From: Alphaproteobacteria bacterium
Lineage (GTDB): Bacteria > Pseudomonadota > Alphaproteobacteria > SP197
DNA length: 64,000 bases
Assembly: GCA_964291265.2 (NCBI GenBank)
Contig: OZ219747.1
Location: forward strand, 4,160,001-4,224,000
Direction: 5' to 3'
Shown piece after piece: positions 30,786 through 33,236 of this stretch; the first letter of the stretch is position 1; the number at the start of each line of letters is the position of its first letter. The position numbers were made by a program, and so were the translations under genes. The notes under the pieces were generated by a model. The model did not search any database. It was not told the origin of the DNA and saw only the letters and a program-made list of their open reading frames with translations.

Positions 30786-33236
30786 TCAGCTGCCCCCCCC
30801 TGCATCGGGGCCGGGAACCGTCGCCGGACAGGCAGCGATGCGAGAGGCCGCCGTCTTCGCCCGGGCAACGACTTCCTCGAAATCCCTGGCGTCGCATGCC
30901 CGGGCCACGGTGGCCTTGACTCCACTTTCCCACTGCGCCTCACCGTCCTGACCGCCGTTCACAAGCGACAGGACGCATTCCAGACCCAGCAGAAAACTCG
31001 CTGCCTCGGCTAGTTCCTCGGCAACCTGCGATTCGAGAATTCCATGTTCTCCGGCCTTCTTGAAAACAGCCGCCGAACCATCCTCACCCAACATGTCCGG
31101 ATGGCTCTTGCCATCATGCAGACGCAACGCGAGCGCTGCTCGCTGGAGACCGCTCAGACCGCCCGGTCCGTCCAGAATCGCAGGGAGCACCTCCCCCCCT
31201 TGCACGTCCGGAACTGGGGAATGAACGTCAACGGGCGGCGGCGGGGCCTGCCGGAGGAGTAGCGAGCGCCTGGCCTCCTCAAACCGTTCAGCAAACTCAT
31301 CCGCACGGTCGCCGGTCACGCACACAACCCTGGCCGACGCCAGTTCCTGCAGATAGTCCGCATCCTGCTTTCCGTCAGCGTTCACAAAACGCTCCAGCGC
31401 GCCGGTCACATTGTGCTTCCCGCTGCCCGGAGGCCGCATCTGAGCCGACCTGACAAGCATGTTGTTGGCCGACCACTGTGCCGCGACCTTGTTGAATCTG
31501 CGGCAGAACTCGCCGGCGTGGTCGTCCACGACGAAACCACTCCCGGCGATGTCCGATGCGCCATCCGCCAAGGCTATGATCTCGATTTCCGATTCGAAGC
31601 TCACTCGGCGTTCACCGAGCACTCCAAGGGCCACAAAAGCAATGCCATCTCCGGAAACCGGACCTCGCCGGGCAACAAACTCGTCGAGAACGGCCCGCGC
31701 CAGCAGAGTGACCGCCGCATCGGCCATGTTGGAGAGCGGCCGGCCGGCGTCCTGCCCCAGGACGTGCCCCTGCATCATCCTTACGCCGATCTGGAAAGCT
31801 TGGTCATTGCACCAGATCTGCGCATTTTCGGCGATTTCGTCGGCGATGTCCGTCTCCGAAAGGTCCATGTCCTCCATCATCTCTCTATAGCCGAACTCAT
31901 GGCCATAATGGAGCCGCAGCAAGCCCCTCTGAGCAAGGAGCAACTCGTCAGGACCCATGCCTATGTTGTCGGGAACTGTAATCTGCTGAAATTCGCGGCT
32001 GGTTACACTGTCGATGAGCGGATAACAGGACTCCATATATCGTGCCAGGCACGGCGCGCCCTGAATGATCTCCGAGATCAAGGGGAGCGATTCGGGCCGG
32101 TGACGGTAAGCCTCGCTGGAGAGTGCTCGCCAATCCTTGATATCCGGATAGAACTTGCGGCGCCACTCGTCGACAAGCGGGTTCATTTTCCTGAACCAGA
32201 CAGCTGGAAAAAGCAGCAGCGTCATCATCGAACCGTAATGCGACGGAAGGCTCGGAGCCTTGTCCTCGGGAAGACCGTGCAGCAGTGGATACGGCTTGGT
32301 GGGCTTGTCGTGATGATCCGAGTGCCGCTGTATGGAGAAGTACAGATAGTTCGAAGCACTGGAATGATTCCAGGAATGATGCGGCTGGATCCGTTCATAC
32401 TTGCCATTCGGCCTCAGGATGCGTTGCAGGCCATAGTGTTGCATGTAGTCGACGGCTCTGATCCCCCAGGCTGCGAACAAGACGATGAACAGCCAAGCGG
32501 CGAGCCCTGCCCATCCTCCCACAGCAAGCGCCAGGGCGGGCCAGGCGACCCACATGGCGGTCCAGAACCAGACCGGGTTCGACTTGTGCCAGAACGATAG
32601 ACCGCGACGGGCCAACCGGCGATGCTGTAAGCGAATCGCCTCCGTGTAGACGTGGGGAAGTACCGCAAGGAGGTAGCTGTAGAAGCTCTGTCCCATTCGC
32701 GCGGACTCCTTGTCCCGCGGCGTTGCGACATTCGCATGATGCATGTAGACATGCTCCGTGTGCATATGCGGCATGGCAATTGTGCCCATCGTGAATGCCG
32801 CCAGCCGCCGCATCCATGCTTTGGGCCTGTGAATCAGGTCATGCGACGTTATGGTGACGAGCCTGCCGAGCATTCCGCAAAACACGAGCAGAACAAGACG
32901 CTCGTAGAGCAACAAGGTCGGCATGTTGCATACGGCCCACAGTATGAACATCACCAACAAGGGATAAAGTACTGCCCACAGGACGAGGATGGCCATGTGC
33001 CAGAACACCTGGGACTCCGGCGTACTGCGATCCAGGTTCGGAACATCGTTCCTGCACAGCGTCTCCAGGATCTTGATGTAGGGTACAAGCGGCAGGATAA
33101 CCCATGGAACGACCCATGGAACGAAGTCGGGCAGCAAATCCAGCGCCATGGCTATCACCAGTGGCACAAGCAGCAGCGTGATCGAAAACGGAACTGCACC
33201 CATCAGGCCAGTTCCGGCTGCGCGGGACGGGTTCAT
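30786..33236 (-). CDS. AlkB-type membrane di-iron hydroxylase/desaturase fused to a degenerate GlnE-like nucleotidyltransferase domain
   Basis: His boxes HDLIH, EHVYMHH, DYMQHYG, QRHSDHH in the first ~370 aa; then FQIGV...LSNMADA...ALGVLGERRVSFESEIEII...MRPPG...GGL in GlnE motif order. Confidence 0.85.
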   Translation of the reverse strand: MNPSRAAGTGLMGAVPFSITLLLVPLVIAMALDLLPDFVPWVVPWVILPLVPYIKILETLCRNDVPNLDRSTPESQVFWHMAILVLWAVLYPLLVMFILWAVCNMPTLLLYERLVLLVFCGMLGRLVTITSHDLIHRPKAWMRRLAAFTMGTIAMPHMHTEHVYMHHANVATPRDKESARMGQSFYSYLLAVLPHVYTEAIRLQHRRLARRGLSFWHKSNPVWFWTAMWVAWPALALAVGGWAGLAAWLFIVLFAAWGIRAVDYMQHYGLQRILRPNGKYERIQPHHSWNHSSASNYLYFSIQRHSDHHDKPTKPYPLLHGLPEDKAPSLPSHYGSMMTLLLFPAVWFRKMNPLVDEWRRKFYPDIKDWRALSSEAYRHRPESLPLISEIIQGAPCLARYMESCYPLIDSVTSREFQQITVPDNIGMGPDELLLAQRGLLRLHYGHEFGYREMMEDMDLSETDIADEIAENAQIWCNDQAFQIGVRMMQGHVLGQDAGRPLSNMADAAVTLLARAVLDEFVARRGPVSGDGIAFVALGVLGERRVSFESEIEIIALADGASDIAGSGFVVDDHAGEFCRRFNKVAAQWSANNMLVRSAQMRPPGSGKHNVTGALERFVNADGKQDADYLQELASARVVCVTGDRADEFAERFEEARRSLLLRQAPPPPVDVHSPVPDVQGGEVLPAILDGPGGLSGLQRAALALRLHDGKSHPDMLGEDGSAAVFKKAGEHGILESQVAEELAEAASFLLGLECVLSLVNGGQDGEAQWESGVKATVARACDARDFEEVVARAKTAASRIAACPATVPGPDAGGGS

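Follow-up and report, generated by a model that had tools for sequence, protein, structure and literature searches.

The closest relative of solved structure for the protein considered here is FtAlkB-AlkG of Fontimonas thermophila (8F6T/8SBB), a di-iron membrane enzyme of the AlkB family with its rubredoxin, AlkG, fused at the C-terminus as a cytoplasmic domain. The accessible part of PMC10113152 lists nine iron ligands for FtAlkB, places Glu271 at Fe2, 3.2 Å from the substrate methyl, and describes the binding of AlkG through six arginines. The position of Glu271 has been proposed to take part in catalysis. In the desaturase SCD1 a water stands at the place of Glu271, and such differences may affect the reaction (PMC10110569, accessible part). 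We compared with this system an 816-residue protein encoded in a 64,000-nucleotide stretch of an alphaproteobacterial genome (assembly GCA_964291265.2, contig OZ219747.1, positions 4,160,001 to 4,224,000), called the window below. Its AlkB-like domain is fused to the C-terminal half of GlnE, the adenylyltransferase of glutamine synthetase, and this half has lost its catalytic residues.

For the second half of the protein the reference is the adenylyltransferase (AT) half of GlnE (3K7D). The G-x11-DxD motif was named for the GS-ATase-like domain of SidM (PMC12409994), and three acidic residues bind metals according to the accessible part of PMC11646218. A third point of comparison is the srp gene cluster, for a sponge-derived proteusin, which encodes the precursor SrpE with the core LCCCW (accessible parts of PMC10286304, PMC10858898 and bioRxiv 2023.06.09.544420), the YcaO protein SrpC and the brominase SrpI. 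The accessible part of the last source reports that srp clusters occur widely in sponge microbiomes, where their transcription is high, and leaves their ecological role open. An original prediction, made from the letters of the window and a list of its open reading frames (ORFs), had proposed the fusion. Absent from it were the loss of the third catalytic Asp, the replacement of Glu by Gln in the HYG motif, the two kinds of cluster context (srp and sulfotransferase), and the occurrence of the same module on pumps of the resistance-nodulation-division (RND) type.

The fusion gene and its distribution

The fusion gene is one uninterrupted ORF of 816 amino acids at 30786..33236 on the minus strand, as predicted, with an ATG that shares bases with the stop of the sulfotransferase gene upstream. 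Pfam FA_desaturase matches residues 115-338 (E 9e-27), and the top PDB sequence matches are FtAlkB 8F6T/8SBB (E 4e-46). In the remaining 440 or so residues the NCBIfam GlnE model PRK14108 matches residues 458-800 (E 8e-20), Pfam GlnD_UR_UTase residues 686-784 (E 1e-6), and Pfam GlnE residues 466-594 with an E of 1e-3 that is below the cut-off. A predicted model of all 816 residues, built on a 126-row alignment, has a predicted local distance difference test score (pLDDT) of 92 and a predicted template modelling score (pTM) of 0.90; a first structure from a 21-row alignment (pLDDT 52) was left out for the membrane domain. Because stand-alone AlkB relatives end in YPDIxDW, we place the domain junction at about residues 375-381 (~32105). 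The predicted fusion therefore stood, and its boundary moved from the ~32120-32125 first given.

A misassembly at about 32120, or a one-off fusion, was ruled out, since full-length homologues exist and contigs span the junction. A word search found the query's cluster and 20 further full-length ones at 62-84% identity, 21 in all. The junction is also crossed by contigs from two public runs of a single study; one of them has 0 differences and may be the window's own source, in which case it is not independent.

At least 100 distinct proteins, from several phyla, share the fusion. Our set of 111 proteins became 100 at a 97% identity cut-off, and counts out of 100 below refer to these. Twenty-nine belong to the subfamily of the window, including close homologues placed there by similarity and not by context, and 71 (the srp-side proteins) lie outside it. 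A scan of species-representative genomes found at least 80 loci, and our locus counts rest on the best 80, of which 78 hold a full fusion and 2 are interrupted by contig ends. Titles of metagenome-assembled genomes at these best loci name Alpha- and Gammaproteobacteria, Acidobacteria, Vicinamibacteria and Nitrospirales, and the hosts are probably sponge symbionts, judging from the srp literature and not from sample records. Within the genus 12 of 23 genomes carry fusions, against 0/18 of the more distant genomes in the same search. The genome of the window has a second, 44% identical paralogue at G000:C2:1832041-1834446, which adjoins a P450, a sulfotransferase and an RND pair (L001:8033-14119; G000:C2:1832000-1838100). 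Annotation pipelines label these fusions as "fatty acid desaturase" or "hypothetical".

The AlkB-like domain

The membrane domain (residues 1-377, 32106..33236, minus strand like all parts of the fusion) has the fold of AlkB. Residues 5-375 of the model superimpose on 8F6T with a Z of 38.2 and a root-mean-square deviation of 2.5 over 350 residues, and on 8SBB with a Z of 37.4, compared with a Z of only 6 for SCD1. All four His motifs of the original prediction are there: box 1 HDLIH (H132, H136; 32829..32843), box 2 EHVYMHH (H162, H166, H167; 32736..32756), the HYG motif DYMQHYG (H267; 32430..32450) and box 3 QRHSDHH (H305, H308, H309; 32310..32330). Together they supply all nine iron-ligand histidines, each of which is present in 100/100 fusions. 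The ratio of nonsynonymous to synonymous substitution rates (dN/dS) of this domain is 0.09 over 26 disjoint pairs of fusions.

In the HYG motif, Gln266 takes the place of the iron-proximal Glu271 of FtAlkB, in an alignment read with the accessible part of PMC10113152. The count of Gln266 in 100/100 fusions is biased, as one of the two scan patterns contained Q. A profile search for relatives, which covered 1.84 billion representative proteins, brought up fusions of a Glu type. Gln stands before HYG in 60/65 fusions and Glu in 5/65; in stand-alone relatives the order is reversed, with Glu in 46/51 and Gln in 5/51. The idea that Gln266 is universal in fusions was thus ruled out by the Glu-type fusions. 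Gln in the HYG motif arose more than once.

Most of the basic patch that receives AlkG in FtAlkB may also be kept. By a mapping done by hand from the FtAlkB alignment and the accessible part of PMC10113152, a basic residue occupies five of the six AlkG-binding positions in 83-100 of 100 fusions, and the remaining one is Tyr in 97/100. No rubredoxin (PF00301) was found in five near-complete genomes (0/5; control 7/14), and a pattern search of the 80 loci found neither a rubredoxin nor a 2Fe-2S motif. In FtAlkB-AlkG the fused part is rubredoxin, whereas here it is a GlnE fragment without conserved metal ligands, and the gene stands in a biosynthetic context. The fusion therefore resembles AlkB in fold, metal site and the presence of a C-terminal cytoplasmic domain, and departs from it at Glu271 and in its rubredoxin partner.

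The GlnE-derived module

Residues 378-816 (30786..32105) comprise the end of the central region, the nucleotidyltransferase core and the C-terminal helical bundle of GlnE. They are 27% identical to residues 597-967 of the genome's own GlnE (E 6e-30). The model matches both halves of E. coli GlnE, 1V4A (residues 366-807) with a Z of 28.5 and 3K7D with a Z of 26.9, and Foldseek recovered the GlnE-type nucleotidyltransferase fold with an E of 1e-10. The assignment of this half to GlnE thus held, and each of its motifs was found where the original prediction had put it. The degenerate G-x11-DxD motif GVLGERRVSFESEIE (E550, E552) lies at 31581..31625. The strand that bears the third catalytic Asp in GlnE (VDMRLRP) corresponds to VRSAQMRPPG at 31425..31454 and has Ala598 at that place, and DGPGGLSGLQR at 31140..31172 occupies the position of KxxxGGLxDIEF.

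From the two Glu residues the original prediction had drawn the option of an altered chemistry, to be checked by the conservation of SEIE. The family does not bear this out. The motif is not conserved: ExE occurs in just 11/100 fusions and DxD in 1/100, and the first position may be A, E, P, D, G, K, S or R. The third position is acidic in 0/100 fusions, whereas all three Asp are present in 31/34 GlnE proteins. In a wider comparison, all three triad positions were acidic in 0/110 AlkB fusions and 0/89 RND fusions, against DDD in 44/48 GlnE proteins. Of the 71 proteins outside the subfamily of the window, 70 have a deletion of the RLRP strand, and the WxWE motif of GlnE has been lost in the fusions.

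Selection on the module is purifying, so that the neutral evolution considered in the original prediction does not apply. In the same 26 pairs dN/dS rises from 0.14 in residues 378-510 to 0.30 in the transferase core and 0.33 in the C-terminal bundle; the same segments give 0.07, 0.10 and 0.24 in glnE orthologues (5 pairs). Ten of the 100 fusions end at about 660 amino acids without the C-terminal bundle, often with YcaO directly behind. Besides these, one fusion is interrupted by a contig end and one is frameshifted. The loss of the triad, the dN/dS values and the ~660-residue forms indicate that the fold is kept, that catalysis is gone and that the helical segment beside the junction is the constrained part. 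The GlnE half is a pseudo-enzyme, in agreement with the repurposed one originally proposed, and purifying selection on it is strongest in residues 378-510.

The segment 378-510 (31707..32105) is helical and acidic, with conserved columns, a net charge of -12 in the protein of the window and a median of -9 across fusions. It contains an insertion of about 27 residues that ends in AQRGLLRLHYGHEF (31893..31982), is common to one GlnE lineage and the RND fusions, and is absent from other GlnE. No Cys or His occurs among the highly conserved module columns of the 100 fusions, so the module itself is unlikely to be an electron carrier. A complex predictor given two copies of residues 378-802 returned a score of 0.00, which is no evidence either way. 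The module shares fold and motif order with the AT half of GlnE. It differs in lacking the N-terminal adenylyl-removing (AR) domain and most of the central region, in the loss of the triad and WxWE, and in being attached to a membrane protein. The fusion is not a GlnE.

The same module on RND pumps

The module with its diagnostic insertion also follows an AcrB-type RND pump (P0179, P0126, P0180, P0206). We found 89 protein clusters of this kind (P0179, P0243-P0330), most of about 1520 amino acids and annotated as efflux RND permease or hypothetical. Such reading frames occur in 6 of the 45 genomes that also carry an AlkB fusion, with up to three copies per genome (G074, G083). R441, E447, W475, F481 and Q482, in the numbering of the window's protein, are 85-100% kept in both kinds of fusion. 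The two kinds share the module, its start point, the insertion and the loss of the triad. They differ in that the second host is a transporter, its named members are Gammaproteobacteria, and the sole regular neighbour in 12 loci (L187-L198) is a membrane fusion protein. One stop codon could remove the module, and its persistence on an unrelated pump in 89 clusters therefore argues that it is kept for something. Reuse on two unrelated membrane proteins is likewise a good sign of a real function, which is testable with two independent hosts.

A search for longer proteins gave no third host among its 46 matches, which is weak evidence, and a metagenome scan with P0179 gave no confirmed locus. In one genome (G068, L202:9081-10004) a free-standing 307-residue fragment of the module lies beside an RND pair on the opposite strand; it is probably a broken fusion.

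Origin of the module

The module starts at the equivalent of residue 579 of the genome's own 1019-residue GlnE, and by alignment to 3K7D it lacks the AR domain together with some 100 residues of the central region. The ~27-residue insertion is found in 24 of the 48 GlnE proteins examined, all of one lineage. In the module tree all fusion modules, from AlkB and RND hosts, form one clade with an SH-like approximate likelihood ratio (SH-aLRT) support of 99, within the insertion-bearing GlnE lineage (100); this tree calls for caution, being a quick search on 58 of 247 rows picked by redundancy, with the insertion columns removed and with long branches. On this phylogeny and the shared insertion the module would descend from the insertion-bearing alphaproteobacterial GlnE lineage.

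In a tree of 47 AlkB domains, those of the fusions form one clade against stand-alone relatives (support 96/94), which points to one fusion event. The clade of the window (100/100) is sister to the srp clade (100/99), and a Glu-type fusion stands at the base of each. Derivation of the window copy from the srp gene was ruled out, the two clades being sisters.

The intact glnE expected elsewhere in the genome was found at G000:C2:3533702-3536758. It is of the insertion type, and a second glnE lies on C1. Two glnE copies are present in many genomes of the genus (L002, L003, L048-L063, L076). The C1 copy of the window's genome is without the AT triad beside its intact insertion-type gene. In G017 the insertion-type gene reads ExD and the second copy has all three Asp, and the insertion-type gene of G022 also reads ExD. 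From such alignments the paired copies look like the result of reciprocal decay after duplication.

Gene context in the window and in srp clusters

In the window the fusion belongs to a cluster of sulfotransferase type. Upstream of it, on the same strand, a sulfotransferase (33233..34279; Pfam Sulfotransfer_3, E 2e-22) overlaps the fusion start with its stop, followed by a transposase remnant at the cluster edge (34301..35548, minus strand; Pfam DUF772). On the other side are, on the plus strand, a penicillin-acylase-family Ntn hydrolase (27705..30107; Pfam, E 9e-211), a MATE exporter (26257..27684; Pfam MatE) and a second sulfotransferase (25009..26130; Sulfotransfer_3, E 4e-20), and then, on the minus strand, the membrane fusion protein of an RND pump (22471..23943; Pfam HlyD_3) and an AcrB-type RND pump (19140..22460). 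This pump is without a GlnE module and is 30% identical over 1081 amino acids to the RND part of P0179. The order along the window is thus RND pump, membrane fusion protein, sulfotransferase, MATE exporter, acylase, fusion, sulfotransferase and transposase remnant, and cysDN lies elsewhere, on C1. Among the 11 loci of this subfamily a sulfotransferase is present in 11, an acylase in 9, cysDN in 9, a MATE exporter in 8, an RND pump in 8 and a P450 in 1. In one genome (G002) both sulfotransferase-type paralogues and cysDN adjoin. YcaO or a precursor was found in 0/11 of these loci, and queries with the srp prenyltransferase-like, cyclase-like and halogenase genes gave no match in the genome of the window.

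The sister clade has a different context. The fusion lies directly upstream of YcaO in most relatives' loci: YcaO is present in 62 of the other 69 loci, on the same strand and at most 1.7 kb downstream, within 400 bases in 52 of the 62. A prenyltransferase-like gene was found in 55 of these 69 loci, a precursor with an NHLP (nitrile hydratase-like) leader peptide in 49, a C39 transporter in 47, an NHLP-leader/terpene-cyclase-like gene in 38 and a halogenase in 24. Thirty-seven of 55 precursors end in LCCCW. With YcaO, LCCCW precursors and a halogenase, the loci of the sister clade are like srp clusters, whereas the window copy stands in a sulfotransferase/acylase cluster without YcaO or precursor. 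From the gene order, the sister-clade gene may be the one lettered srpB.

The prenyltransferase label comes from an Atlas lead (Trp_DMAT 0.91), with no Pfam or PDB match, and the cyclase label from weak matches to SQHop_cyclase_C (E 1e-3) and drimenol synthase (E 2e-4). One locus (L030:9320-10624, L030:13013-14131) encodes an NHLP-leader plus terpene-cyclase-like fusion and an ABBA-prenyltransferase-like gene, and some loci (L026, L033) have a polyprenyl synthase. The prenyltransferase-like and cyclase-like genes suggest that the product is a prenylated or cyclised-terpenoid ribosomally synthesised, post-translationally modified peptide (RiPP). From these genes together with the fusion we predict an oxidised isoprenoid on the mature srp product, which would give chemists a mass to look for.

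Proposed role of the fusion and of the module

The reading that we put forward, tentatively and with somewhat less than even confidence, is that the AlkB-like domain oxidises a lipophilic natural-product intermediate and that the triad-less GlnE half is a non-enzymatic cytoplasmic cap which docks a partner protein. In the cluster of the window the di-iron domain would add a hydroxyl or a double bond to the intermediate, the two sulfotransferases would sulfate the product with 3'-phosphoadenosine-5'-phosphosulfate (PAPS) from CysDN, the acylase would take off an acyl group, and the MATE and RND systems would export the sulfated product. In the srp sister clade the fusion may oxidise the LCCCW-type product in its isoprenoid (or its peptide) part. 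Segment 378-510, acidic and helical, would lie beside the basic rubredoxin-binding surface of the AlkB domain, and the cap could recruit or gate a substitute electron donor or a pathway partner, proposed because these genomes are without rubredoxin.

Several observations weigh against this proposal. The order of the pathway is read from gene neighbourhood alone, its substrate, product and partner are all putative, and 7 of the 69 non-sulfotransferase loci are without YcaO in the DNA fetched. A cap placed beside the donor patch is a proposal; by the hand mapping, the window's protein is basic at just 4 of the 6 AlkG-binding positions. The acidity of residues 378-510 was inherited from the parent GlnE (-7 to -12), and it is weaker in the RND fusions, with a median of -4. 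Donor docking cannot be the general role of the module, because RND pumps need no electron donor. Gln266 does not define the chemistry either, as Gln also occurs in 5/51 stand-alone relatives and Glu is retained in 5/65 fusions.

PII binds GlnE in its central region, and glutamine stimulates the C-terminal domain of E. coli GlnE when this is isolated. The module might be a captured nitrogen sensor, in which the allosteric glutamine site of GlnE is kept and the attached oxidase or pump is switched by nitrogen status. This is unlikely in our estimate. Such a sensor could work on any host protein, in agreement with its presence on AlkB-like enzymes and RND pumps, and the nearest full-length relatives include GlnE with a decaying transferase motif and an intact N-terminal half (G017A), which is expected if the dead half is kept for regulation. 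However, the literature searched gives no mapped glutamine site, evolution is fastest in the transferase core and the C-terminal bundle, and some fusions do without the bundle. The absence of the first ~100 central regulatory residues also weakens the PII part of the sensor originally suggested. A structural passenger, to which we would give a similarly small chance, would explain why constraint drops with distance from the junction, why most of the conserved positions are shared with the parent GlnE and have the look of core residues, and why the model is confident of one two-domain arrangement. It fits poorly with the retention of the same residues on an RND pump of unrelated fold, with a transferase core that is still selected and in frame across phyla, and with the trimming of only 10/100 fusions, where more would be expected. 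A RiPP-specific scaffold, which would bind SrpE by its NHLP leader, or else the adjacent YcaO, and present the peptide to the di-iron site, would suit the short distance to YcaO in 52/62 loci. According to the accessible part of PMC10858898 the srp cluster encodes no trans-acting RiPP recognition element, so that leaders must be bound there in other ways. We consider it very unlikely, since the subfamily of the window keeps the module with 0/11 loci holding YcaO or a precursor, and the RND fusions keep it with no conserved RiPP neighbours in 12 loci.

Two further explanations take one half of the protein at face value. That the fusion is a catabolic alkane hydroxylase with an incidental GlnE fragment is highly improbable. 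The AlkB fold, the nine His and the annotation of the closest stand-alone relatives (P0102) as alkane 1-monooxygenase speak for it, but rubredoxin is missing from 5/5 genomes, no rubredoxin or 2Fe-2S motif occurs in the 80 loci, Glu271 is replaced, and the neighbours are biosynthetic or conjugating genes. Still harder to credit is a rewired nucleotidyltransferase with a new chemistry. Its second acidic position is Asp or Glu in 93/100 fusions, R636 is kept in 97/100 and the fold is intact, yet the third Asp is never acidic, the first position is unconserved, WxWE is lost, the RLRP strand is deleted in nearly all srp-side proteins, and selection on the core is relaxed (0.30 against 0.10 in glnE). 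Apart from the cap that we propose for the fusion, a wider idea is speculative and rather doubtful: the dead GlnE half would be a regulatory domain that is portable, having been taken a single time from a duplicated glnE and then placed on a di-iron tailoring enzyme and on an RND pump. It would have spread over phyla of sponge symbionts and would make both synthesis and export of specialised metabolites, the ubiquitous srp RiPPs among them, depend on glutamine or on a partner protein in common.

The portable pseudo-GlnE module is apparently a new element, and the pseudo-enzyme domain family is apparently undescribed. The literature searched, including the supplements of PMC10858898 and PMC9426513, describes no AlkB-GlnE fusion, no srpB or srpD and no GlnE pseudo-enzyme of a sponge symbiont; the 2021 paper that defined srp lay outside this search, and the gene may appear in it as a desaturase, and Table S6 of bioRxiv 2023.06.09.544420, a list of RiPP cluster genes, may likewise annotate it. 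No other gene of srp clusters is as tightly linked to YcaO as the fusion. It is also a member of the AlkB family that stands outside alkane catabolism, with Gln naturally in place of Glu and no rubredoxin partner found.

Other observations

Some loci of the srp type have variant cores: RCCC, LSCCG, LSCCL, LSCCM, LCCCGI, MCCCGI, LCCCGW, LCCCGV and FSMCF. These loci (L033, L038, L039, L040, L088, L091, L098, L118, L119) carry methyltransferase, FAD oxidase or amine oxidase genes. In one srp cluster a C39-peptidase ABC transporter is in frame with the second half of the desaturase domain (P0113); this is likely a deletion or an assembly chimera. The genome of the window has a separate proteusin cluster on C1 (L036:4089-19373, L037:18-2150) that holds no fusion gene. 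It encodes two YcaO proteins, an azoline oxidase, a LanM-like protein, an ABC transporter and three NHLP-like ORFs, two of which end in cores rich in Ser, Thr, Gly and Ala.

The GC content of the window falls to 0.58-0.59 at 24001-26000 and 32001-34000, compared with about 0.65 around them. The dips span the two sulfotransferases and the AlkB half, which fits an acquired cluster. Beyond the cluster edge, an RTX-repeat protein with 18 Pfam stretches (36787-39354, minus strand) and an S8 protease (39691-42162, plus strand) are encoded, with transposase remnants beside them.

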